25,741 bases of DNA from a virus (IMGVR_UViG_3300030376_004646:1-25741), one strand, 5' to 3'; positions 406 through 19,255 are shown, counted from the stretch's first letter. The notes: generated by a model from the sequence alone, not told the origin. Made by a program: numbers and translations.

Positions 406-2551
406 TGAAGAGTCCTTGCGCTTGAGCTTTTGCGATCTGTCTGATCGTTTCTCGATCACGCTCCATGAGTGCGTTGATTTCTGCGACATTAACTTGAGCG
501 CCATATTTAGCGTTCAGCTCAGCGGCTTTCAATCGAATGTCTGCTTCAGACTCATCACGTTTGAAGTCATCGTCCATGATGATTTTGAGTCGATCATTTT
601 CTGCGTCAATAACTGCTTTCTCAGCTTGCACATTTGCTTTGTGAATCTCTGCTTGTGCCAACATCTCAGCTGGATCAGGCTTTTTCTCTTCTTGTTGTGG
701 TGGCATCGGTGGTATATCAGTGTTAATAAATGCGTTTACATCTTTGAAGCCCGCCATTTCTATAACTTTTGCTAACGTGTTTGCGTATTGATTCATTGTG
801 ACCATTGGATTATTGGGCCCAAGCATTTTTAAGATCTCTTCTTGTTTTCCAGCGACCATGCCTAAGACTTGCATCTTCTCTTCGTCACTGCTTTTGCTGA
901 TCGCTACATTTACAACTAGATCTTTGTCCAGCTCCCAATATCTGGGGTCCACTGCAACAAAATCATTGTTTAATCTGACAATCTCTTCTTTATCAGCGTA
1001 TTTGATGATCAAATTGTTGACGAGCTTGAAAAGCGTTTTCATGCCACCTTCTGCGAAGTGACGACAGATTAGCTCGACCCTGCCTTGCGCGCCTGACATT
1101 GTTGCTGAGACTGCTGCTTTTGTTGAAGATTGCAACGCGTCAGCATTTAGACCTGCGCTTGCTTTAGAAACGCCCGTACGGTTCTCGCGGGCATCATCCA
1201 GATAGGAGAGAACAGGAAATGCCTCTTTCCCGACGAAGGGTATCGAGAAGGGTTGAACCATGCCGGGCGCTCTCATGCGAATGGGTTGACCGATGTCGGT
1301 GTTCAAAACATCGTCAATGTTTACCTGGCCCTCTACCACCCCCATGCGGGGGAATATCGAATGACCGAGAGAGTCAAGTGTGTCGCGCATGATTTGTGAT
1401 TTTGCAGTTTGTATTGGAATTAAATAATCTGAGACACAGCTTCCGATCGCTGTGTGAGGCTCAGGATCCATCGAGAACATAACGATAGGAAGTTCGTCCC
1501 ATTGATCGTAGTTGACGATGTTTAAGCCATTGCCGACTGTGCAGACTCGAACACGCTCTGCGATTCCGTCTTTGTCTAAGTCGTAGTTGACGTAATGTTC
1601 GATGTATAAAACTTTTTTATCATACGCATTGTCAGCGTCAGGATACATTGAGCTATCAAGTGGGCTTCTTGCTTCTTCTTCTTCGTATGTTTCTGCGTCA
1701 AAAGTTGAGCCTGAGCCTGCGTATTCTTTCATCTCATCTTCATCGTAGCCCATTGCAACGAGATCGCTCACTGACTTGATCATACGATGTGCAACATAAG
1801 CTGATGTCTCTAAATCTCTTGCATTGCGAGCAATCAGCACTTCTTCAGGCGGAACACTTTCAATGCACACTTTGTTTTTTGCTGTCACTCTGCGAACAGT
1901 CAAGTCATACGACACAGGTGTTTCTTGCGTCATTTCTTCGCCTGTCATTTCGTCAACAATCGTCATGCTTTGCATGTTTGCTGACTCTTCAACGATCTCG
2001 ACATCTTCATCGAGCAATAGAGCCGTGTAAGCGTCTTGAGACAAATCAGAGAAATGATGCGTTGTCGCTTTGATGCTGTCATCGTAATACGCTTTGACGA
2101 AGCCGGTCTTACGGACAAGCGCATCTTTAAACGCATCGTAGAGTACGCTGAAGCCATTGCTTCTTTCAATCGTGTAATTGACAAAATCTGTTTGCTGTTT
2201 TGCCAACTCAATATCATTTGCATCATGCGGTATAAATTCGACTACTTTTTTTGTGCCGAAAAATGTTCGCATGATTGAAGGCATCAAAAATAAAACACTG
2301 TCTCGCAAATCTGTCGAGACAAATTCTGATTGCAAAGACGATGTTGCGTTGGGTTTTTTGCCCAAATAATAATTTGTTGCTTCAGCGCGTTCTTCGCCAA
2401 TCTGATCGATGAAATCAGACGCATCATCAAGCTCTACTTTTAGAACGCTTTGTAGATCTTCAATGTCTGTTTCTTCTATAGAATTTACTTCATCACTTAC
2501 AACTTCTATCTCTGCTTCTTCTAATAGACGTTCGTTATCTGTATATGCCAT
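386..2551 (-). CDS. portal protein (P22-like podovirus type)
   Basis: 721 aa, directly downstream of TerL; N-terminal YYLG, KDALVRKTGFVK segment, RTGVS...GL motif, and coiled-coil C-terminal barrel. Confidence 0.9.
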   Translation of the reverse strand: MAYTDNERLLEEAEIEVVSDEVNSIEETDIEDLQSVLKVELDDASDFIDQIGEERAEATNYYLGKKPNATSSLQSEFVSTDLRDSVLFLMPSIMRTFFGTKKVVEFIPHDANDIELAKQQTDFVNYTIERSNGFSVLYDAFKDALVRKTGFVKAYYDDSIKATTHHFSDLSQDAYTALLLDEDVEIVEESANMQSMTIVDEMTGEEMTQETPVSYDLTVRRVTAKNKVCIESVPPEEVLIARNARDLETSAYVAHRMIKSVSDLVAMGYDEDEMKEYAGSGSTFDAETYEEEEARSPLDSSMYPDADNAYDKKVLYIEHYVNYDLDKDGIAERVRVCTVGNGLNIVNYDQWDELPIVMFSMDPEPHTAIGSCVSDYLIPIQTAKSQIMRDTLDSLGHSIFPRMGVVEGQVNIDDVLNTDIGQPIRMRAPGMVQPFSIPFVGKEAFPVLSYLDDARENRTGVSKASAGLNADALQSSTKAAVSATMSGAQGRVELICRHFAEGGMKTLFKLVNNLIIKYADKEEIVRLNNDFVAVDPRYWELDKDLVVNVAISKSSDEEKMQVLGMVAGKQEEILKMLGPNNPMVTMNQYANTLAKVIEMAGFKDVNAFINTDIPPMPPQQEEKKPDPAEMLAQAEIHKANVQAEKAVIDAENDRLKIIMDDDFKRDESEADIRLKAAELNAKYGAQVNVAEINALMERDRETIRQIAKAQAQGLFNGSGNG

Positions 2552-2557
2552 GTATGT

Positions 2558-4090
2558 TTATCCCACTCGTATAATTTTTGATTTTATAGGCTTTTTCCAG
2601 TTGTAACCCATTTGGTTAAAATTGCTAGAAAAGCTGGCGGCAGAACTAGCCATGGTTAATGCAAGTGCGTCTGCTTTGTCAGGAGATTTGACTCCTCTCT
2701 TGCGCATCGATTCCTTGGCTTCTATCTTTATCTTGCCTGTGCTTGTGTAAGTATAAGACGGACTGACTAATTCTGCAATCAGCTCGTCATCATTGGGCAA
2801 GCGGCAATCGCGAGCAGAGAGCCAATCTTTGATTTTGAACCATAATTCTGCGCGTAGATTCAAATAATTTTTCTTGCTTGCAGGCGATTCTGCGACATTA
2901 ATGCCACGCACAGGTAGATCTTGTTCAGCTAATCGATCCACGACACCGCTTCCGACACCGATGACATCAACTAAAATCTCTTGCGGTCGATTCATTGCAG
3001 TTGCATCGTCATAAAGATTTTTAATTGCGCCACAAAGTTGCATGAGATCCATTGATTTGAATGTTTTTATTTCAAATACTGTGTTTCCTTGTCTTACGCA
3101 AAGCGCTGAATTGTCAGCTCCGAAACGAGCGACATCGAGTCCCCATATAATTGGCTCACTTGCTGTCAACGTGACTTCTCTATCGACTGCTGATCTTGCT
3201 AATTCGATCGGAATAACAGTGTCATCGTCAGCGCTAGGAAATTGACCCAGCACTTCGACTCTTGCGACTGTTGAATCAGCTCCGTATTGTTCGAGCATAG
3301 TGTTAAAAAGTTTTTGATCTGTGCCTTCAACGTCACGCGAGTCGATTTGTTCTGTTTGCCAGAAAGATCTGTTTGCATGAAACGAATCATAGAAAGGACC
3401 TGTGTTTCTTCGTGGATTCGAAAACGCGAACCAAAAACGATTTTTCGTTGGCTCTGTAAAAAAGCCTTCACTAACTGAATAAATTTGGTGGGGTATGCCC
3501 GATGCTTCATCGCATACTAAAGTGACTCCGTGCGAGCTGTGAATTCCTGCAAATGCGTCGGGGTTTTCTTCGCTCCAGAGGCTTGCTTGCGCGTAGTAGT
3601 AGCCACAATCGATGCTTAAATCTCTGACGAGCAGTTCTTCGAACCATGCTTGAGGCTTTAACGCTGTCGCTGTTTTGTGAAACCAATGTCCGTTTATGGC
3701 TAAGCTGACCCATTTTCCGAGTTCTGCCCATGTTCTTGTTCTGAGCTGTGCTTCTGTGTTTGCTGTGACGATGACAGTTGAGCCGAGTCGAGTTGATAGC
3801 ATGAACAGAATGATCCACGCTACGAGTGCTGATTTGCCGATGCCACGACCTGAAGCGACTGCGAGACGATACATCTCAGGCAAATCAATCACTTCATTGC
3901 GTTGTATATGCGTTGCAATGTCTCGTAAAATTTTTTCTTGCCACTTACGCGGACCTGTGAAGTCTTCGAGAGGGGTGTTTTTTTGCCCCCATGGGAAAAC
4001 GTAGCGTACAAAATTCAACGGATCATCTTTGATCGTAAGCGACCAGAGCTGTGTCATGAGTTGTTCTTCTTGTTCTGCTGAGTATTTCAT
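2558..4090 (-). CDS. terL: terminase large subunit
   Basis: Walker A SGRGIGKS, Walker B LVCDEA, SNP coupling motif, RNase H-like nuclease motifs GLDVARFGAD and SPDKADA. Confidence 0.95.
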   Translation of the reverse strand: MKYSAEQEEQLMTQLWSLTIKDDPLNFVRYVFPWGQKNTPLEDFTGPRKWQEKILRDIATHIQRNEVIDLPEMYRLAVASGRGIGKSALVAWIILFMLSTRLGSTVIVTANTEAQLRTRTWAELGKWVSLAINGHWFHKTATALKPQAWFEELLVRDLSIDCGYYYAQASLWSEENPDAFAGIHSSHGVTLVCDEASGIPHQIYSVSEGFFTEPTKNRFWFAFSNPRRNTGPFYDSFHANRSFWQTEQIDSRDVEGTDQKLFNTMLEQYGADSTVARVEVLGQFPSADDDTVIPIELARSAVDREVTLTASEPIIWGLDVARFGADNSALCVRQGNTVFEIKTFKSMDLMQLCGAIKNLYDDATAMNRPQEILVDVIGVGSGVVDRLAEQDLPVRGINVAESPASKKNYLNLRAELWFKIKDWLSARDCRLPNDDELIAELVSPSYTYTSTGKIKIEAKESMRKRGVKSPDKADALALTMASSAASFSSNFNQMGYNWKKPIKSKIIRVG

Positions 4091-4181
4091 ATCAAAAAAA
4101 ATTACAAAAAATTAGTTACACGTCTGCAAAAACAACGCACCCGCGTTGCGTCCGATGGGGGGTGTCCGCACCTCATTTCCT

Positions 4182-4700
4182 CTATGGTTTTTCATCATCT
4201 TCTGATGTCAGTTTCTTAGAGAGAAGTTGACTATCGCTTTGTCCATTGATGTTGCGAGCTGTTTCAATCTTGCGAGTCGAAGTAGGTTCTAAATCAATGA
4301 TGCGTTTTTGTGCGTTCTGCAAAACTTTATTCAAACTGATCTGATGCTCGACTGTCTCATGAACTCTGTCTTTCCAGTTGTCGGCGTCTCGGTTTTTTAA
4401 GAAAAACACCTGAGCAGTCACGTTAGGGTCTTTGCCAGCTCGACCTGTCGCAGAATCGAAGAGAGCAGAAGCGACCTCGTCAATGGCTTTTGTCTTGCCT
4501 CTCTTTAAAGCAGTGTCAAATTTCGCAGAATCGCGTTTTCTTCTAGCGATAGTGGAGAGTGAAACCCCAAAGGATTCAGCGATCTTAGACTCTGAGATTC
4601 CTAAGCCAGCCATTCTCGCCACTTCTTTTAATTCATCGTCATTAAATTTTATTCGCTTCCTTCCAGCGCCTTTTGGGTTCTTTTCAGTCTTCTTTGCCAT
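4182..4700 (-). CDS. terS: terminase small subunit
   Basis: N-terminal HTH (ESKIAESFGVSLSTIARR), TAQVFFLKNR...W motif, position immediately upstream of TerL. Confidence 0.8.
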   Translation of the reverse strand: MAKKTEKNPKGAGRKRIKFNDDELKEVARMAGLGISESKIAESFGVSLSTIARRKRDSAKFDTALKRGKTKAIDEVASALFDSATGRAGKDPNVTAQVFFLKNRDADNWKDRVHETVEHQISLNKVLQNAQKRIIDLEPTSTRKIETARNINGQSDSQLLSKKLTSEDDEKP

Positions 4701-4704
4701 TTAA

Positions 4705-5694
4705 TTACTCACAAACCTTACAAGCATCGTTTGAATCATCGACTAATTCTCCTGTTTTAAGAGTCTCTTGTATTCGATACGCTAACTCTTTACCAACGAA
4801 GCCACGATGACTCCAGTATTTTGCAACAGTCTCAACGCTTATGGTTTCATTGTCTATTATACGTTTGTTATTTGTAAAATTAATGTTGTTCGCTTTCTCT
4901 CTGTCTTCAGCATCGTAATCTTTTCTGTACTGATTATTTATAGATGAAACAGCCTCTAATAAAGAAAGATTGTTGTTTGAGAATTCTATAAAAGCATTTA
5001 TGTCTTTAGGAAAACACGCACCACCGAAACCTCTTCTTCGATTATTGTCTGCAACTTTTGTATGCGATGTATCAATTCTGTCGTCTGCTGTTATTGCAGA
5101 AACAATCTTTTCATAATCACAATCATATTGATTAACTAAATCATAAAGTTGATTAAAGAAAATAACTTTCATCGCTAAAAAACTATTGACTGAGTATTTA
5201 ACAAACGAAGCCTCTTCAGCACTCATATGAACAAAATCACTTGAGACACATCTTGAATGATTCGCATAGATCTCTGAAAGTTTCTTTGTTGCTACATCTG
5301 AGCCACCAAGCACATGATGATCAGCGTTGATAAAATCATGATTTGAGTTTCTTTCTGTCAAGAACTCTGGGTTGTAAACAAACCGATCTGCGTCAACGAA
5401 AGACAGAAAGTTACTTACTATATTTGGAGTAATAGTTGATTTAACGACAATCAAACTATTTGTTTCTCTGCAAAGATAATCAACAACATGCTCTACAATC
5501 TTGCTGTCTATCTCTTTGTTGTCTTTCATAGGGGTTGGAACTGAAACAAAAGAAACGTCAGCTTCAAAAGAATTGAGATCCTCTAGTGTTGTATTGTAAA
5601 TAGGGTCAATTATTAAAAGTTCAACTCCATTTGTTCTGAACGCGTTGTCTATTGCTTTTCCAACAAAGCCATGACCAATTATTGCTATTTTCAT
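4705..5694 (-). CDS. ugd: UDP-glucose/GDP-mannose 6-dehydrogenase family protein (short phage form)
   Basis: GHGFVG Rossmann motif, VPTP, KSTI, NPEFL, KY..NSFLAMKV, and catalytic GFGGACFPKD. Confidence 0.9.
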   Translation of the reverse strand: MKIAIIGHGFVGKAIDNAFRTNGVELLIIDPIYNTTLEDLNSFEADVSFVSVPTPMKDNKEIDSKIVEHVVDYLCRETNSLIVVKSTITPNIVSNFLSFVDADRFVYNPEFLTERNSNHDFINADHHVLGGSDVATKKLSEIYANHSRCVSSDFVHMSAEEASFVKYSVNSFLAMKVIFFNQLYDLVNQYDCDYEKIVSAITADDRIDTSHTKVADNNRRRGFGGACFPKDINAFIEFSNNNLSLLEAVSSINNQYRKDYDAEDREKANNINFTNNKRIIDNETISVETVAKYWSHRGFVGKELAYRIQETLKTGELVDDSNDACKVCE

Positions 5695-5726
5695 ATGTAT
5701 AAGCCTCTGTTATTTGTAAATTTTGT

Positions 5727-6134
5727 TTATTCTTCTAAATCTTTTAATAGCTGTTCGTATGTTTGCTCTTGCAACTCTTCGTTATACTCAATGACTTTCA
5801 CTCCTTTTTGTTTTTGACCTTTGTTCTTGAGAAAGTAAATGTAATTCGATCTCAAACAAACGAGTGCAAACACTTGGCACACATCCTCGTTATAAACTCT
5901 TTTGCCTTTCTTTACGAAGTTAAACTTGTATCGCTCATGTGTTCTGCTTTCTTCTTTGTGTGCGTTATAAGCAGATTTAACTTGTACTCCATAAAACTTA
6001 TCATCAATTTGTATCACTAAGTCTCGATTGCTGTTAATAGCAGAGGGTGAGAAGCAAGGAATACCTTTCATCATGAAGAATATTTCTACTAGCTTTTCGC
6101 CTGCGCTTCCACGCTGATTTTTATAATGAACCAC
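5727..6134 (-). CDS. PD-(D/E)XK endonuclease-like protein
   Basis: GSAGE helix, RDLVI and VQVKS pattern of small restriction-like/homing nucleases. Confidence 0.7.
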   Translation of the reverse strand: MVHYKNQRGSAGEKLVEIFFMMKGIPCFSPSAINSNRDLVIQIDDKFYGVQVKSAYNAHKEESRTHERYKFNFVKKGKRVYNEDVCQVFALVCLRSNYIYFLKNKGQKQKGVKVIEYNEELQEQTYEQLLKDLEE

Positions 6135-6719
6135 TCAAACTATCTCATCTTGTAACGCAACACCCTCTATATCTTTATCTGTTATTGGTTTTCTCGATTT
6201 AATCTCAACATTGCCAAAACTATTTTTGAACCTCTTTTTTAAATCAAAAACATCTTCATCAATTAGTGCAAGCAACTCTCTTATGCTGAAATATAAACTC
6301 GGTTTCTCTTTGTGTGACATTGCACACGCTTTTGGTAACTCTTCTGCGTTCTCTACAACGATTATTTGTAGATCATTGTGTGGGTGTTTAACAATCCACA
6401 TAGCTGGACTTAACTCATCAAATCCTCTGAATTTTGCATAATCAATAAACTTATCAAAACCACGCATCATGCTTTCGCTGTAAGTCAGTATTTTTTCTTC
6501 ATCAAACTTAGATCGTGCTTCATCGAGCATTTGTATCAAACGTCTCATGTTCTTCTGATCATCGATTGACTGTATTTCAATTAAACGCTCAAAGCCCCAA
6601 TCACAGCTCACTTGAACTTTTCGCTTCAAATAGTTCGTATATGCTTCAGTCGATTTATTCTTCAGATCTTGACTGACTTTACGATACATATCAGGTTGAA
6701 CTGTTTTCTTCTTATACAT
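6135..6719 (-). CDS. hypothetical protein (194 aa)
   Basis: Long ORF packed in the operon; no motif recognised. Confidence 0.75.
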   Translation of the reverse strand: MYKKKTVQPDMYRKVSQDLKNKSTEAYTNYLKRKVQVSCDWGFERLIEIQSIDDQKNMRRLIQMLDEARSKFDEEKILTYSESMMRGFDKFIDYAKFRGFDELSPAMWIVKHPHNDLQIIVVENAEELPKACAMSHKEKPSLYFSIRELLALIDEDVFDLKKRFKNSFGNVEIKSRKPITDKDIEGVALQDEIV

Positions 6720-6764
6720 ATAAAAGACTCAAAAAGAATAAACAAAAAATACTGACAAAATGGT

Positions 6765-6960
6765 CACGACAACGACTACGACTCTTATAGAGTCTGTCGT
6801 AGTGTCGCTGTGTCGGCGCAATGTCGCAGTCGATGTCGCAACTCATGTCGCAAACGCTTGAAAGCACTGATTTTACTGGGTTCGTGATGTCGCACTTCGT
6901 GTCGCAACTCATGTCGCAAGCATTTTGAAACTGCTCTGAAAAAAACACGTTTTGCGACAC
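6765..6960. repeat. iteron-like repeats plus palindrome; probable replication origin
   Basis: RTGTCGCA at 6821, 6833, 6845 and at 6887, 6899, 6911 (12-bp period); inverted copy TGCGACAC at 6953; dyad ACTACGAC-TCTTATAGAGTCT-GTCGTAGT at about 6775-6803. Confidence 0.7.
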
Positions 6961-6994
6961 GCTTTTGACACTATTTTGCTCTGTTTTGTTGTTA

Positions 6995-7417
6995 TCAAAC
7001 AACATTTGCTCTCTCATTGATTGAATCAGCAATCATTTGTTTGTACTTTGTCGCTGAATAATTGTGTGAACGATCTATAAAATGAACGTAAATATTTAGG
7101 TTATCTCCTGTGAATGATTTGTTTTTGTAGTCATCACCTAAGAATCTGATGTCGATTTTTTGACGCGATTCAAGCAGTTCTAATAGATCAGATTCGAGTC
7201 TATATGTAATGATTTGATCGACATATCTAATCGCAGAGAGCGTCTCAATTCGCTCTGCAACAGAAAGAATAGGCTTCATCTTCTCAGCTCTCTCAATAGA
7301 AGGATCTTCATGCAAATAAACAATCAAATACTCGCAGTTGTCAGCACACTCTCTTAGGGCGCGAATATATCCGATATGCATGACATCGAAAGCTCCTGCA
7401 ATGACTCCTGTTTTCAT
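6995..7417 (-). CDS. cytidylyltransferase family protein (TagD/RfaE domain II-like)
   Basis: GAFDVMHIGY (HIGH-like), KPILSVAER, IRYVD, GDDY, DRSHNYSAT. Start trimmed to MKTGV, which has an ATGA overlap with the cupin stop. Confidence 0.88.
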   Translation of the reverse strand: MKTGVIAGAFDVMHIGYIRALRECADNCEYLIVYLHEDPSIERAEKMKPILSVAERIETLSAIRYVDQIITYRLESDLLELLESRQKIDIRFLGDDYKNKSFTGDNLNIYVHFIDRSHNYSATKYKQMIADSINERANVV

Positions 7418-7746
7418 GTTGTCGCTCTCTTTTTGTTGAAAACGCACACAAAATACAAATCGTCTTGAGAGTCGTTAATGACTTTGTGAAAAACATTGTC
7501 TTCAATAAGAACGACATCATTGCTTTTAACGTCTATTGTTTCGTTGTCTAGCTTCATTTTTCCTTGCCCTTGTACGAAAAAATAGATTTCTTCTTGACCT
7601 TCGTGAGAATGACCTGTTGTTTGTTTGTTTGCTTTTAGTCTTGTGCTACTCAGCGTCAAGTCTCTTAGTCTTGTGTTGTCTTTAACGATGTATCGATCAT
7701 CTTGTTTGACTAAATCGCCTTGTATGTTTTGTATATTGAGCTTCAT
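7414..7746 (-). CDS. cupin domain protein (sugar isomerase-like)
   Basis: GHSHEGQEEIYFFVQGQG and NVFHKVIN metal-binding cupin motifs. Confidence 0.85.
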   Translation of the reverse strand: MKLNIQNIQGDLVKQDDRYIVKDNTRLRDLTLSSTRLKANKQTTGHSHEGQEEIYFFVQGQGKMKLDNETIDVKSNDVVLIEDNVFHKVINDSQDDLYFVCVFNKKRATT

Positions 7747-7747
7747 A

Positions 7748-9547
7748 TTAAAAAGGTGGTTCTTCATCGATCATTTTATTGCTCTTTGCATACGCAATAT
7801 CACGCTCAATTGTTCGAACTGACACGCCTGTTTTGCTCGAGATTGCATCTTTGTCAGCTCCTTCATTGATCATTTGTGCAACGACTTCACGTCTCATTTC
7901 GAGATCGTCTTTGTCTTTTGACATGACTCCGTTTGAATAGAGCCACGCAATTGGCAGTGCATCTTTACCATAAAAATGACGCGTCTTTTCAAACGACCAC
8001 TTAAATGACGTTTCATACGTTTCAGCGTCAATGTCGAGTAGGGCGTCTGAATCGTTGTTTGCCAGCTCTGTCTTGATAACGCCGTCAAGCACCACTGTCT
8101 TGGACATACTTCCGAGCTGGGTGCCTGCTTTTGATGAATGATGAACGAACCATGCGACACGATCTTGTTGACGCAACTTAAGTAATAACGGTTGCACGTC
8201 AGATACCCATTCGTCTGCTTGATTGCTATCAGTCATGCTTGTGAGCGTCAGAAGGTTGTCTAAAATCACTACCGCTGGATCTATCTTCTCGATCATGTCC
8301 CAGAACCATGTTTTTCCTTCTTCTGTATTGAGCGGTAACAATCCATGCTCTTGATCGTGATGTGACACGATAAATAAGTTCTTTTCTACGCGTTGTATAA
8401 GCTCTTTTTGTCTCTCGAAAGACTCAGCACTGAACATGTTGAGCTGTTGATTCAGACGTTCTTGCATGGCGTTTGGTGGCATTTCTGCATCGATATAAAC
8501 GACTTTGACAGCGTTCGGTATCTTGTAATGCCCGAAGTTATAGCCTGACGCGAGTGCGATTGACATGACAGAAGTGCCTAGAGATTTGCAATGACCGGGA
8601 GCGCCATGAATCATAAAAAGATTTGATCTCGCCATGAGATTTTCAATGAGCCACACTTTCGGTGGATACTCAATGTCTTTAAACGCTTTATAATCGTGAT
8701 AGACGACAGTGTGTGACGCTTCTTTGTGATATTCGTTGTCTCTCGCATACTTAACGACATCGAAGTATTCTTGTCGCTCATAAGCATCGTATAGATCGTC
8801 TTTTTCGTCCCAGTGCGTTGGCGGTTTCACAATGCTCGTTTTAATGTTCAACGATTCGAGCTTTTCTTTTAATGCGATTGCACAATCGAAGCCTGCATCG
8901 TCATTGTCAGGGAAAATAATCACTTCATTAAAGTCTTTGAGCTGTGTCCAGTTGCTTTGCTCTAGTGCTGAGACTCCGCCATGCCATGCACAGATGATGT
9001 TCTCTTTCGCAAGTTCTTTTGCACCTAAGAACGCTTTTTCGCCTTCGACTACGATGACGGGCTTCGCTGAATCGCCTTCACTTAATAATAGTGGCATTAA
9101 TCCAGTTGGTCTTTTCATGATCCAGTTATTTGAATCAACGCGACTAAAAGGACGATAAATCTTACCCTCGAATCGCATTGTGCAGAACGCATCATTAAAG
9201 CGTGAATAGATCTCTGCTTTCTCTGCAAGCGCTCTCATTTCGTCTGAGCTGTATTCTTTGCTCTGTATTTGTGTATCGTTGTTTCTCACTGGCGGTAGTT
9301 TTTGTTCAGTGATACCCAGTGTTTCTAAAAATTCTGTGATGCTTGATTCACCTCGCTCTCTTTGTATGAGTGAGAGCATGCCACCACCTTCTTCATTTTC
9401 GTGATCGTAGAATGTGCCTTTAGAGAGATCGATGCAGAGTGAGCCTTTGCGACCGAACCTTAATTCTTTGTCGCTACTGAGCTTCTCGTTGGGTGATCCT
9501 AGAAGTGCAATCGCAATCTGTTCTGCGTGTAATGCTACGTCAATCAT
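7748..9547 (-). CDS. primase-helicase (TOPRIM plus RecA-like AAA_25 plus C-terminal HTH)
   Basis: TOPRIM motifs VEGEK and FPDNDDAG; Walker A GAPGHCKS, YIDAEM, ILDNL, HHSSK; C-terminal HTH GVSVRTIERD. Confidence 0.88.
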   Translation of the reverse strand: MIDVALHAEQIAIALLGSPNEKLSSDKELRFGRKGSLCIDLSKGTFYDHENEEGGGMLSLIQRERGESSITEFLETLGITEQKLPPVRNNDTQIQSKEYSSDEMRALAEKAEIYSRFNDAFCTMRFEGKIYRPFSRVDSNNWIMKRPTGLMPLLLSEGDSAKPVIVVEGEKAFLGAKELAKENIICAWHGGVSALEQSNWTQLKDFNEVIIFPDNDDAGFDCAIALKEKLESLNIKTSIVKPPTHWDEKDDLYDAYERQEYFDVVKYARDNEYHKEASHTVVYHDYKAFKDIEYPPKVWLIENLMARSNLFMIHGAPGHCKSLGTSVMSIALASGYNFGHYKIPNAVKVVYIDAEMPPNAMQERLNQQLNMFSAESFERQKELIQRVEKNLFIVSHHDQEHGLLPLNTEEGKTWFWDMIEKIDPAVVILDNLLTLTSMTDSNQADEWVSDVQPLLLKLRQQDRVAWFVHHSSKAGTQLGSMSKTVVLDGVIKTELANNDSDALLDIDAETYETSFKWSFEKTRHFYGKDALPIAWLYSNGVMSKDKDDLEMRREVVAQMINEGADKDAISSKTGVSVRTIERDIAYAKSNKMIDEEPPF

Positions 9548-10506
9548 ACTGTTATAAACTCTATGTTTTTACAAAAATAGTTAATGGTTTTTGATAATCC
9601 TTCTCTCAGCTCTATTTTGGGTTTCCAGTCGAGTTCAAATGACGCAAGACTAATATCAGGCTTTCTTCTTACAGGATCATCTTGTGGTATATCGCAATGC
9701 TCAATCTCGCTTTCTGTTTTTGTCAACGCAACGACAAGATCAGCGAGTTCAAGCATCGTAAATTCGTTAGGATTGCCCAAATTAACAGGGCTTTTGTTGT
9801 ATCTTGAGCGCATCAATTTCATTAGCGCTTCAATCAAATCATCGACATAACAGAAAGAGCGTGTTTGCTGTCCGTCTCCGTAGATTGTTATGTTTTCATT
9901 GTTGATTGCTTGTACGACAAAATTTGAAACAACGCGACCATCGTTTGCGTTCATGTTGGGCCCATAAGTGTTGAAAATTCTTGCGACACGAATATCGACA
10001 TTCTTCTCGCGTTGATAATCAAAGAAAAGCGTTTCTGCTGATCGCTTTCCTTCATCGTAACAGGCGCGTATTCCTGTTGGGTTGACATTGCCGTAATATT
10101 GTTCGACTTGTGGGTGCATCGTAGGGTCACCATAGACTTCGCTTGTCGATGCTTGCAGTACAGTTGCAGAGTTCTTTTGTGCAAGATCTAAGACGTTGAG
10201 AGCGCCTATGACACATGTTTTCAATGTCTTAATAGGGTCGCTCTGATAATGCACAGGACTCGCTGGGCAAGCTAAATTGTAGATCTCGTCAACATTCAAA
10301 TTTATTGCTTCTGCAACATCGTGTTCAACGAACTCAAATTGTTGCAAATGATTAATGTTTGCTATGTTTGTAGTTGATCCAGTTGAGAAGTCGTCTAAGC
10401 AAATAACGTAACTGTCATCATCGATGAGTGCTTTACATAGGTGGCTTCCTAAAAAGCCAGCACCGCCAGTTACAAGTACGCGTTTTTTGTCGAATTGATT
10501 TCTCAT
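9544..10506 (-). CDS. uxs: UDP-glucuronate decarboxylase (UDP-xylose synthase)
   Basis: VLVTGGAGFLGSHL, IYNLACPASPVHYQ, ASTSEVYG, CYDEGKR, RIFNTYGP, DGRVVSNF, QTRSFCYVDD, DDP..R.PDI are all signatures of the UXS subfamily of extended SDRs. Confidence 0.93.
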   Translation of the reverse strand: MRNQFDKKRVLVTGGAGFLGSHLCKALIDDDSYVICLDDFSTGSTTNIANINHLQQFEFVEHDVAEAINLNVDEIYNLACPASPVHYQSDPIKTLKTCVIGALNVLDLAQKNSATVLQASTSEVYGDPTMHPQVEQYYGNVNPTGIRACYDEGKRSAETLFFDYQREKNVDIRVARIFNTYGPNMNANDGRVVSNFVVQAINNENITIYGDGQQTRSFCYVDDLIEALMKLMRSRYNKSPVNLGNPNEFTMLELADLVVALTKTESEIEHCDIPQDDPVRRKPDISLASFELDWKPKIELREGLSKTINYFCKNIEFITV

Positions 10507-10526
10507 TGTTCCTTGTTTTAAAAGGA

Positions 10527-10572
10527 TGTAGAGAGCCGTGGAGGATCAACATGTAATAATTGGCTCTCTACA
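10527..10572 (-). promoter_or_regulatory. intergenic stem-loop (11-bp perfect stem, 24-nt loop)
   Basis: TGTAGAGAGCC (10527-10537) pairs with GGCTCTCTACA (10562-10572); followed by CCTTTT on the minus strand. Confidence 0.65.
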
Positions 10573-10588
10573 CCATTTGGGGGTTACT

Positions 10589-11200
10589 TCAAAACGGAAT
10601 TTCTTCTGTCTCTTGTTGCGAGATTGCAGAGCCATTTGTTTTGCTCTCATCAAGCGCTGTCTCTTCAAACGTATCTGTCGTTGCTTCAAATGAATCGTCA
10701 GCTCGCCAACCTTGAATTTCAAACTCAGGTATTCGAGAGTTGCCTTTGCCGTATGCGACTGCTTTTGATCCTTTGTATTCTACGACAGCAACTTTTCCTG
10801 CATTTTCAGCAATTTGAGGATGCAACGCTGTATATAAAGCAAGAAAGCCTTGCGAGACACCTTTCGATGTTGATGACCATGTTCTTACACCGAGATCTTT
10901 CGTGTAAAGATCGACAGAAAAGCCTCTTTTGTATTCGAGTTTTTGTTCTTCAGTGAGAAGGGTCCCGTCATTGCGCTGTGTCGGTAGCGATTTTCTTATT
11001 CCTACTTCATCGTCCCAGTGCCAATCAGGTGAAAATCCTTCACTGATCCAGCCCCAACCGCTTTTGATTGAGTTCGGATCAAGTAAAAATTTTTCAACTG
11101 TTACTTCATCGTCACCTGCTTTCCAGCCATTGACGCTTGGCATGTATCTTACATATTTTCGTCCGTCCATATTATCCTCTAGTCCTAGTAAATCACCCAT
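10589..11200 (-). CDS. putative single-stranded DNA-binding protein
   Basis: Aromatic beta-rich core, acidic tail ending EEIPF, strong AAGGAG RBS, location in the replication module. Confidence 0.65.
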   Translation of the reverse strand: MGDLLGLEDNMDGRKYVRYMPSVNGWKAGDDEVTVEKFLLDPNSIKSGWGWISEGFSPDWHWDDEVGIRKSLPTQRNDGTLLTEEQKLEYKRGFSVDLYTKDLGVRTWSSTSKGVSQGFLALYTALHPQIAENAGKVAVVEYKGSKAVAYGKGNSRIPEFEIQGWRADDSFEATTDTFEETALDESKTNGSAISQQETEEIPF

Positions 11201-11215
11201 AGTTTTTCTCCTTAA

Positions 11216-11299
11216 TTAGATGGTTATTATTAAAATGAAAACGACCGCAACTGTTATGAGCGCAATCAGTTTTTCAAAATCATTGTTGTTGTAATGCAT
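11216..11299 (-). CDS. small membrane peptide (27 aa)
   Basis: Hand translation MHYNNNDFEKLIALITVAVVFILIITI; fills the gap between the glycosyltransferase and the SSB-like gene. Confidence 0.4.
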   Translation of the reverse strand: MHYNNNDFEKLIALITVAVVFILIITI

Positions 11300-12137
11300 C
11301 AAATTCTCTTTGGCTTATTTCTGTTAGCTTCATTCCGTAATTATTTATTCCTTCTGGTATTTCAACTCCTTGTTTGCGTATGAGCTGATTGTTTCTAAAT
11401 GATGAGTAATCGACATGATGCTGATAACGACCAAACTTCCAGCTGACAGTGCAAACGTCAGGATGTTGATCGACAAGTGATTGCGCCATTTGCAATCGAC
11501 CATCGTCTGCATAAAGCTCGTCTGTGTTACCGCCTTTCATTTGCATGGTTCCTGTTTTGTAGCCTAGAAACGCATTGAATAAGATTGTGCAAAACCCATC
11601 TTTTAAGACACGCAAGCAAAGATCTGTGTCTTCGTTGTAACGTCCTCTCCAGCGATGTTGTAGATCGTTTCTTATCAATAGCATTGAATAAACGCGTGTA
11701 TTCAAATAATAAGGCGGTACAGCCGATGCCGCATTTGCAAAGAAGCCATAATTAAATCCTGAAATACCTACATTTTCATAACGCTCTGTAAAATCTTCTG
11801 CACATTTGAATATTGTTCCTGAAGCAACTCTGATCTTTGCATTGCGATTCAGTCTCAAAAAACTTGCAATGTTGTCGTCAAGAATCCAATGTCTTTCATA
11901 TCCTCTCTCTATCGAATCTTCCCAAACCCAGTTTCGAGCAGGGATACTGCCTTGTCCTAAATTACTGAAAGGAAGAACCTTAATCTTCTTCTCATCAATG
12001 TGTTCGTTGTACGCATCAAACTCTTGTTGCTCAATCACAATATGATAGGGAACATTCAATCGCTCTAATTCTTTTTGCGTAAGTCTTGAGTCTGCTCTTC
12101 CTTTAGAAATGATGTAGACAGGGTATTTAGGATTCAT
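11280..12137 (-). CDS. TAGT/GREB1-like GT-A glycosyltransferase (family linked to DNA base glycosylation)
   Basis: YPVYIISKGR, ARNWVW, HWILDDNI, NTRVYS, WRGRYNEDTDL, MKGGNT..LY, GRYQHHVDY. Start trimmed to MNPKY, which has a GAGG RBS. Confidence 0.8.
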   Translation of the reverse strand: MNPKYPVYIISKGRADSRLTQKELERLNVPYHIVIEQQEFDAYNEHIDEKKIKVLPFSNLGQGSIPARNWVWEDSIERGYERHWILDDNIASFLRLNRNAKIRVASGTIFKCAEDFTERYENVGISGFNYGFFANAASAVPPYYLNTRVYSMLLIRNDLQHRWRGRYNEDTDLCLRVLKDGFCTILFNAFLGYKTGTMQMKGGNTDELYADDGRLQMAQSLVDQHPDVCTVSWKFGRYQHHVDYSSFRNNQLIRKQGVEIPEGINNYGMKLTEISQREFDALQQQ

Positions 12138-12387
12138 CGATATACCTCTTGTACTTGTTTCTAAATTTAGGAAAAGCCGGATACCAAACACTTTTTGTCA
12201 AAGGTGTCAGGTTTTGTTCAATCAGATCTGCAAAATTTTTGTAATCTAATTCGTCTCTGAAACGAATAGTGATCTCTGCGTAAGGCTCAACTTGCAATTG
12301 CAAAAACTCAGGCATGTTTTGCCATTCGATTTCCCATGGCTCTTGCTCAAGTTCTTCAAGTAAAAACATTTGTTTCTCATCTTTCAT
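12127..12387 (-). CDS. small acidic protein overlapping the glycosyltransferase start
   Basis: EWQNMPEF...IRF...FADLIEQ.LT..TKSVWYP, a pattern I recall from genes adjacent to phage TAGT-like glycosyltransferases. Confidence 0.75.
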   Translation of the reverse strand: MKDEKQMFLLEELEQEPWEIEWQNMPEFLQLQVEPYAEITIRFRDELDYKNFADLIEQNLTPLTKSVWYPAFPKFRNKYKRYIDES

Positions 12388-18545: not shown

Positions 18546-18992
18546 ATGCCAATAATCAACATGAAAGGACTTGATCTGATCAAAGAGTTTGAAGGTCTAA
18601 AAACAGACGCTTACAAAGATCGAGCAGGTGTCTTAACAATCGGCTACGGAAGCACAAAAGACGTAAAAGAAAATGATTCAATCACTGAACAATTTGCGAC
18701 TGCAATGCTTGATAAAGAGTTGCGTGAATACGAAGGCTACATTGATAATCTTGTAAATGTTCCTTTAAATTCTAATCAACACTCAGCATTGGTTAGTCTA
18801 ATTTACAACATTGGGCCCACGCACTTTAAAGACAGCACACTTTTGAAAAAATTAAATGAAGGTAAATACGATGAAGTGCCTTATCAAATGAAGCGTTGGA
18901 ACAAAGCAACAGTGAACGGAGAGCTAACAGAGCTTGAAGGACTAATTAGACGCAGACAAGCAGAAGCAGATCTATTCAATGAGGACTCGTAA
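18546..18992 (+). CDS. GH24 phage lysozyme (endolysin)
   Basis: LIKEFEG...AYKDRAGVLTIGYG (E/D/T triad) and GLIRRRQAE. Confidence 0.93.
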   Translation: MPIINMKGLDLIKEFEGLKTDAYKDRAGVLTIGYGSTKDVKENDSITEQFATAMLDKELREYEGYIDNLVNVPLNSNQHSALVSLIYNIGPTHFKDSTLLKKLNEGKYDEVPYQMKRWNKATVNGELTELEGLIRRRQAEADLFNEDS

Positions 18993-19255
18993 TGATTGAA
19001 AATGAATTTCAAATTGACGAACTAATACATAAAAAGGGTCAAGAATATGGACATCCAATGAGGTTTTTTCGTCAGTTATCGAAAGTGTGGAGTGGAGTGC
19101 TTGATGTTGAAATCACTCCTCAGAAAGCGGCGACTATGATGCTGTTGTTCAAGTCAGTGCGTTTGTATAACAACTCAAACAAAGCTGATACTCAAGATGA
19201 CATTCAGGGTTATCTTAAAATTGTCGAGATTCTAAATGACTTTGAACAGTCATGA
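18992..19255 (+). CDS. DUF6378-like all-alpha protein
   Basis: GQEYGHP...WS..L...M...K..R...D...DIQGY pattern. Confidence 0.75.
   Translation: MIENEFQIDELIHKKGQEYGHPMRFFRQLSKVWSGVLDVEITPQKAATMMLLFKSVRLYNNSNKADTQDDIQGYLKIVEILNDFEQS

Follow-up and report, generated by a model that had tools for sequence, protein, structure and literature searches.

In a 25,741-nucleotide stretch of viral DNA (IMGVR_UViG_3300030376_004646:1-25741; the whole stretch is hereafter referred to as the window), a TAGT-family glycosyltransferase gene, the gene of a small putative partner subunit and the genes of homologues of UDP-glucose dehydrogenase (Ugd) and UDP-glucuronate decarboxylase (Uxs) may together equip a temperate phage to attach xylose to DNA. 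In our judgement, it falls just short of an even chance that these genes encode a DNA-directed transferase of two subunits that receives UDP-xylose, acts at a limited number of sites and uses no known hydroxymethyl handle. The route from UDP-glucose, through UDP-glucuronate, to UDP-xylose by the successive action of Ugd and Uxs is established biochemistry. In the window phage, Ugd would convert UDP-glucose to UDP-glucuronate and Uxs would convert UDP-glucuronate to UDP-xylose; the partner and the TAGT would form a two-subunit glycosyltransferase, which would add xylose at a restricted number of positions in the phage's own DNA, without the hydroxymethyl handle used by the characterised phage DNA glycosyltransferases. 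The purpose would be site-limited protection from host nucleases, or a packaging mark. The DNA acceptor, the xylose and this purpose are our inference.

A temperate phage resembling podoviruses is the source of the window, which encodes a portal of the SU10 type, a terminase, an integrase, a RecE-like exonuclease and an endolysin. The six genes named in the initial annotation (ugd, uxs, a cupin, a cytidylyltransferase, the TAGT and its partner) were all found, co-oriented on the minus strand, the first five with Pfam or PDB matches to the families assigned to them.

Joint gain of the genes and exchange at a single slot

Comparison (blastn) with the sister phage L199, the primase-helicase of which is 97% identical to the window copy, gave blocks of 88-94% identity interrupted at four places (4842-5704, 7005-7749, 9548-10527 and 11299-12384), confirming the four separate insertion slots previously proposed. 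The last of these interruptions (11299-12384), flanked by orf58 and the SSB-like gene, is a slot with exchangeable content: the window has the partner and TAGT genes there, L199 and G003 have the gene of a 401-amino acid (aa) protein combining a Walker A motif with a GNAT domain (ABC-ATPase-GNAT, hereafter ABC-GNAT), and G001, like the more distant L474, has that of an N6/N4 methylase (PF01555, E = 4e-11 in G001). All four of these relatives lacked uxs, and the three of them that reach far enough also lacked cupin and ugd; two further relatives (L196 and L200), the sequences of which stop short of the TAGT slot, had no cupin and no ugd. This distribution supports a joint gain of the TAGT, uxs, cupin and ugd genes in the window lineage, and the association of ugd and uxs with TAGT among relatives was thus upheld.

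Similar exchanges were found in other phages. The partner-TAGT fusion of Aeh1 occupies the same place as an ABC-GNAT gene in PX29, with flanks 77-78% identical, and a TET, a TAGT and a methylase lie between primase and helicase in P12024L, where P12024S has an ABC-GNAT gene. The slot genes of Aeh1 and PX29 are given as presumed DNA modifiers, with the base unknown, by Nikulin and Zimin (PMC8056088). Although indirect, this swapping with genes of the DNA-writer type (methylase or ABC-GNAT) is the strongest sign of action on DNA by the occupant of the slot, and hence by the TAGT, and it supports the DNA-type role initially attributed to the TAGT. The lineage is a natural experiment, in which sister phages differ at one slot (methylase, GNAT or TAGT) and donor genes were gained with the TAGT.

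The cupin/cytidylyltransferase slot is occupied in L196 (1817-2716) and L200 (1717-2616) by a PAPS-reductase-like gene, and may be a second DNA-modification slot. Three relatives without TAGT carry a gene for a Gnt1-like N-acetylglucosamine (GlcNAc) transferase (PF11397; E = 4e-42 in L191) between TerS and TerL (L191:8328-9377, L196:4826-5791 and L200:4726-5691), possibly for virion protein glycosylation.

The TAGT and its predicted partner

The TAGT gene (11280-12137, minus strand; start corrected to the ATG at 12137) encodes a 285-aa GT-A glycosyltransferase of an Aeh1-like subfamily, scoring 154.8 bits against PF20691 (E = 4e-45), the cut-off of which is 27.5 bits. R14, D87-D88-N89 and N168-E169-D170 were invariant in the alignment, and the acidic metal/donor motif of GT-A enzymes is therefore present (D87-D88-N89 and E169-D170). 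The structure model, with a predicted local distance difference test (pLDDT) value of 93.6, matched GT-A folds; the best PDB matches were protein and glycan GT-A enzymes, all of them weak (E about 1e-5 to 1e-6). The window TAGT is 47% identical to Aeh1p093, and only 25% identical to the TET-linked TAGT of P12024L, and no T2/T6 record was present among its 30 tblastn matches at E 0.01, so it appears to belong to a separate, uncharacterised subfamily. The median isoelectric point of 86 TAGT domains was 9.2, which we count in favour of the proposed system.

The partner gene (12127-12387, minus strand) encodes an 86-aa protein of a W-x-x-MPEF family with no Pfam match. Among viral loci, this partner precedes or follows the TAGT in 60 of 78; among cellular-genome loci, it does so in 67 of 80. 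In other phages, its domain is fused in front of the TAGT or behind a ParB-like N-terminal domain, and Pfam confirmed ParB_N in the fusions of L242 and L317; ParB-like activators are described as necessary for some phage T-dioxygenases (PMC13229309). The partner is predicted to bind the TAGT: the modelled complex scored 0.88 (a mark reached by 116 of 157 solved pairs, versus 2 of 215 mismatched pairs), with a best control of 0.00, a contact agreement between runs of at least 79% and a partner pLDDT of at least 75. In the model, the invariant M25-P26 of the partner packs onto TAGT residues 264-267. A class I S-adenosylmethionine (SAM) methyltransferase family recurs at 10 of the 78 viral TAGT loci, often adjoining the TAGT (e.g. 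L070:7797-8636), and is a candidate sugar methylase.

The nucleotide-sugar genes

The uxs gene (9544-10506, minus strand) is inserted just before that of the primase-helicase, and its stop codon overlaps the start codon of the latter. Uxs matched human UXS1 (2b69) over its full length with E = 1e-109, the next family having E = 2e-33, and its STSEVYG and YDEGKR motifs are identical to those of the human enzyme; the STSE and YxxxK motifs are those we take to be catalytic in UXS. By sequence, it is a clear UDP-xylose synthase homologue.

Ugd (4705-5694, minus strand) is a short phage homologue of UDP-glucose dehydrogenase (UDPG_MGDP_dh_N, E = 2e-18; central domain, E = 7e-17). It lacks the C-terminal UDP-binding domain, its matches stopping near residue 263, and all 12 phage relatives aligned likewise end near residue 275. 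K166, N170, C227, D231, E110 and T87 were invariant across the 13 sequences aligned; the conserved Cys, Lys, Asn, Asp and Glu, which also line up with solved enzymes, are those we take to be catalytic. The predicted fold matched UDP-glucose dehydrogenases (E = 6e-17), with a pLDDT below 50 in the tail. This tail, the last ~50 residues beyond a core of ~275 aa, corresponds to a resident gene of 57-72 aa that is free-standing in relatives and fused in frame here, and a degenerate repeat borders the ugd insert. Given these two features, the arrangement points to a gain of ugd by insertion in the window lineage. The resident gene (4705-4845 in the window) ends in a CxxCE motif and lies upstream of TerS in relatives.

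The cupin (Cupin_2; 7414-7746, minus strand; PF07883, E = 3e-13) has an intact H-x-H...E...H motif. It matched only generic Cupin_2 clusters in the Atlas, as a common viral cupin with no assigned function, and, of the viral loci sampled, 4 of the 85 for Uxs have a cupin adjoining uxs and 2 of the 94 for short Ugd have one near ugd.

The cytidylyltransferase-like gene (6995-7417, minus strand; PF01467, E = 2e-10), initially counted in the pathway, was excluded from it, as it does not co-vary with the TAGT, uxs, cupin and ugd genes. It is missing from L081 and L002, both of which have these four genes, and is present in G001 (91% identity), which has none of them, and in L202, which has no cupin. 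From this pattern, it appears to be an independently mobile passenger.

Co-occurrence in other phages

All co-occurrence counts are samples, based on the best 80 matches per alignment scan. Outside the window phage, a TAGT was present in 15 of 85 viral Uxs loci (12/64 after near-copies were dropped); 13 of these 15 pairs were co-oriented within 700 bp, and nine within 25 bp. Control loci for structural genes contained a TAGT in 0/76 and 0/79 cases, but lie outside replication regions, so the background is understated. In a single-protein Uxs scan, TAGT was present in 0/12 loci, and the link is visible in the alignment scan only. On the TAGT tree (a quick tree), the Uxs label required six changes, five of which were forced by well-supported branches; the TAGT label on the Uxs tree required eight changes, only two of them forced, and the window Uxs had no supported TAGT-linked sister.

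A TAGT was also present in 22 of 94 short-Ugd loci, 12 of which carried an epimerase and none Uxs; a reading of its motifs suggests that this epimerase is UDP-glucuronate 4-epimerase-like. The full trio of TAGT, Uxs and Ugd was found in none of the 85 Uxs and none of the 94 Ugd loci, and was seen only in the window phage group; elsewhere in these samples, TAGT was associated with one of the two donor genes or the other. Among 80 cellular-genome TAGT loci, uxs was found in one and ugd in one. The partner and TAGT are thus the core, and the donor genes are optional add-ons.

Large T4-like phages (L095, L098-L102, L104, L216, L234 and L252) have operons in the order partner-TAGT-epimerase-short Ugd, in many of which the partner occurs twice; these operons are candidates for a uronic-acid version of the same system. 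In L106 (5866-11727), a short Ugd and an SDR end a cluster of TET, GATase-like, acyltransferase-like, transferase and P-loop kinase genes, those other than TET and Ugd being identified by eye. Genes for a full-length Ugd, a Uxs-like epimerase (46%) and a thymidylate synthase lie together in 9 kb (1896-10745) of the cultured Pseudomonas phage QdP_Psa3 (L375), a region in which no TAGT or partner was detected.

Search for enzymes making an acceptor base

The initial annotation pointed out that no enzyme creating the acceptor base was visible in the window. A hydroxymethyl-pyrimidine acceptor made by an enzyme encoded elsewhere in the genome is not supported, as near-complete genomes with the same TAGT subfamily also lack the known enzymes. 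In 50 records (49 with TAGT, plus G001; 15 at least 90% complete), no Tet_JBP match exceeded the cut-off (0/50, and 0/15 near-complete); two weak matches both contained stops, and the control, the phage TET of Nigel, was recovered at E = 4e-8, also below the cut-off. The search was repeated with two phage TETs on six-frame translations (P12024L control, 94 bits), yielding no match in the window, eight whole genomes, 80 viral TAGT loci or 17 relative loci, and single matches among the 179 Uxs/Ugd loci and among the 80 cellular-genome loci (the latter in L463). C5-methylases were absent from the window and found in 1/50 records (an incomplete record; 0/15 near-complete), and the thymidylate synthase family, which includes dCMP hydroxymethylase, was absent from the window and found in 1/50 records, a 676-kb provirus record. 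No Pfam or PHROG match to alpha- or beta-glucosyltransferases (GT-B) was obtained among the 38 window proteins.

A whole-genome Pfam scan covered 296 of the 319 open reading frames (ORFs) of at least 100 aa in eight TAGT genomes, seven of them at least 90% complete (13 ORFs of more than 700 aa and 10 from G020 were omitted). The 2OG-Fe(II), thymidylate synthase and C5-methylase families were absent from these 296 ORFs; MT-A70, PAPS reductase, dUTPase, an amidoligase/GATase pair and GT2 each occurred once. No priming enzyme was found by Pfam in G013, a complete 64.7-kb genome in which a partner-TAGT fusion abuts Uxs. The region of L472 and L478 matching the unseen part of the window phage contains capsid, adaptor and fibre genes, and no dioxygenase or hydroxymethylase was found among the 28 proteins scanned there; the matches included N6/N4 methylases, nucleotidyltransferases and ART domains. 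A thymidylate synthase search in Aeh1 gave one strong match, to a full gene, and one weak partial match below the cut-off, and Aeh1 is absent from the list of phages with gene 42 in Table 4 of PMC2993671.

Observations weighing against a DNA xylosylation system

A number of observations weigh against xylose transfer to DNA by the window phage. The 78 closest non-identical TAGTs have neither ugd nor a true uxs in the flanks searched, so TAGT usually works without a phage xylose supply; conversely, TAGT is missing from most Uxs loci (70 of 85) and most Ugd loci (72 of 94), and Ugd is absent from all 15 other TAGT-Uxs records. Uxs-linked, epimerase-linked and stand-alone TAGTs are intermixed on the quick tree, so the donor is not readable from the TAGT sequence, and an attempt to deduce the donor sugar from TAGT phylogeny failed. 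The TAGT-bearing relatives are 98-100% identical in the module genes and count as one event. The short Ugd has no C-terminal domain and its dehydrogenase activity is only predicted, as is the DNA-writing role of ABC-GNAT, no demonstration of the activity of which was found in the literature searched. About 9-10 kb of the window genome, as estimated from a 27.75-kb relative rated 79% complete, lies outside view and could hold a priming enzyme. In one of the 80 cellular-genome loci (L463), the window type of TAGT lies beside a TET operon; this TET comes with a TAGT-like gene of its own, and the partner-TAGT fusion faces it tail to tail. All the characterised DNA-acting members described in the literature consulted act on a hydroxyl of 5-hydroxymethylcytosine (5hmC) or glucosyl-hmC.

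Restriction sites provide a further argument of this kind. Palindromes are avoided in the window (6-mer observed-to-expected ratio of 0.71; GGCC, 5 observed versus 18.6 expected), and complete TAGT genomes avoid them strongly (GGCC in G028, 0 versus 70.5 expected). Because palindrome avoidance persists, a T4-like whole-genome DNA armour is unlikely, and the broad anti-restriction protection initially envisaged is doubtful. Relatives without TAGT have 6-mer ratios of 0.60-0.78, about the same as that of the window, where avoidance may predate the gain of the TAGT.

Comparison with known systems

The window system has a PF20691 member, yet lacks the defining features of both TET-linked and T-even systems. 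The beta-glucosyl-HMC-alpha-glucosyltransferase of T2/T6 is a DNA-acting enzyme of the same family and GT-A fold (PMC13216743), and a T-even-like structure model aligned with the window TAGT at 16% identity, with a template modelling (TM) score of 0.64. The T2/T6 enzyme adds a second glucose to glucosyl-hmC and requires gp42 and alpha-GT, whereas the window has neither a hydroxymethylase nor a GT-B enzyme; the description of the T2/T6 enzyme consulted mentions no partner subunit, whereas the window TAGT has a predicted one. According to PMC13216743, the TAGT is solitary in 288 of 753 phage genomes encoding transferases of this kind; solitary TAGTs are thus common, and no demonstration of what they modify is known.

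The TET/C5-methylase-linked clusters of subclass II (bioRxiv 10.1101/2023.12.21.572611; PMC8256090) likewise combine a GT-A enzyme with a donor-supplying nucleotide-sugar SDR enzyme, and their R...DD(D/N)...ED motif is similar to that of the window TAGT. The same pairing is found here, as Uxs co-varies with the TAGT in the window lineage and abuts it elsewhere, but the TET/C5-methylase of those clusters was not found in the window. Pyle et al. (bioRxiv 10.1101/2023.12.21.572611) showed that the transferases usually depend on such SDR partners, which determine the sugar, and that phage GT-A enzymes that need a partner epimerase produce hexuronate on 5hmC; the sugars reported are hexose, N-acetylhexosamine (HexNAc), heptose, Kdo and hexuronate, with xylose or pentose unmentioned in the main text.

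The Aeh1 glucosyltransferase belongs to the same subfamily as the window TAGT and has the partner fused in Aeh1p093. This protein is presumably ORF087c of PMC8056088, listed there in Table 2 as a presumed DNA modifier, base unknown. Unlike the window, the 10.9 kb around Aeh1p093 contains no Uxs or Ugd. The arabinosyl-5-hydroxycytosine of RB69 and DLP3 (PMC13326640) likewise involves a pentose attached to phage DNA from a donor that the phage makes, but it depends on GT-B transferases, a thymidylate-synthase-like hydroxylase and an arabinose-5-phosphate route, none of which was found in the window. Mu Mom (PMC13219725), a single post-replicative writer acting on unprimed adenine N6, is a functional analogy for a handle-free writer, although it uses GNAT chemistry with glycyl-tRNA, unlike the TAGT. 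That source makes no mention of ABC-ATPase fusions and lends no support to a Mom-like nature of the ABC-GNAT.

Alternative explanations

It is rather unlikely, but worth considering, that the partner and TAGT form a stand-alone writer xylosylating canonical DNA directly, at a DNA end or on a normal base (exocyclic amine or oxygen), which would explain the one-for-one swap with methylases and GNATs. If true, this would be the first phage DNA sugar modification without a primed base and the first xylose on DNA; no report of xylosylated phage DNA was found in the literature searched, mostly outside subscription journals. Xylosylation of a virion or host protein, with the position among replication genes reflecting early expression only, strikes us as unlikely. 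Protein O-GlcNAcylation is reported for GREB1, a member of the same broad family (PMC7968844), the weak PDB fold matches of the TAGT are to protein and glycan enzymes, relatives have the Gnt1-like protein-type glycosyltransferase between TerS and TerL, no base-priming enzyme was found and several TAGT cassettes adjoin terminase or portal genes. However, DNA methylases and GNAT share the slot in three phage groups unrelated to one another, ParB-like domains occur in fusion with the partner, and the genes flanking TAGTs are methylases, polymerases and helicases.

The genes might instead be independently mobile passengers, with the TAGT using host UDP-glucose, and Ugd and Uxs altering the cell surface or the nucleotide-sugar pools of the host. 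The four separate slots, the independent movement of the cytidylyltransferase, the 78 nearest TAGTs without uxs and ugd, and the absence of TAGT from most viral Uxs and Ugd loci are consistent with this explanation, which we nevertheless consider quite improbable: the TAGT, uxs, cupin and ugd come and go together among relatives, TAGT-Uxs adjacency recurs in unrelated phages, and the initial observation that no membrane glycosyltransferase or flippase is present was borne out by Pfam and PHROG scans of the 38 window proteins. None was found, either, among 66 genes beside TAGTs in cellular genomes. A DNA target bearing a sugar other than plain xylose (glucuronate, arabinose via a host epimerase, or the product of a 4-keto intermediate reshaped by the cupin) seems about equally improbable. 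The 12 short-Ugd loci (of 94) pairing a TAGT with a UDP-glucuronate 4-epimerase-like enzyme, as read from motifs, and the hexuronate on 5hmC shown for related clusters (bioRxiv 10.1101/2023.12.21.572611) argue for another sugar, as do the co-variation of the cupin in the window lineage, its abutting of uxs in other phages and the production of UDP-arabinose by Uxs and Uxe in Sinorhizobium (PMC6024577). Conversely, Uxs would use up UDP-glucuronate, the window has no second epimerase and the cupin is present in 0/15 TAGT-Uxs cassettes. A site-limited DNA xylosyltransferase supplied by Ugd and Uxs, if real, would extend the known DNA modifications by one sugar and perhaps also by a type of linkage. 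UDP-xylose emerges from the analysis as the likely donor and the partner as a subunit that is probably required, with cultured phages, such as Aeh1 versus PX29, available as test cases.

Neighbouring features

The landmarks of the initial annotation were upheld for the RusA-like resolvase (PHROG 244, E = 7e-14), the primase-helicase and TerS; the SSB-like gene had no family match in profile scans, its label resting on an acidic tail, and the origin rests on repeats. These iteron-like repeats (6822-6959), a landmark outside the module, comprise six copies of TGCGACA with a 12-bp spacing, as two triplets (6822-6912) and one inverted copy, and suggest a replication origin. They were found again in four of five relatives checked and were reduced in L081; a 106-aa ORF overlapping them is disrupted in relatives. 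A hairpin between the SSB-like gene and uxs (10520-10575), possibly a terminator or processing site, is conserved in L199 just before the insertion point. A gene for an ART-PolyVal domain protein is inserted after the portal in some relatives (L199:17788-19098 and L470:3992-5209), and a DUF6378 protein gene (window 18992-19255) closes the lysis genes and is kept in relatives.

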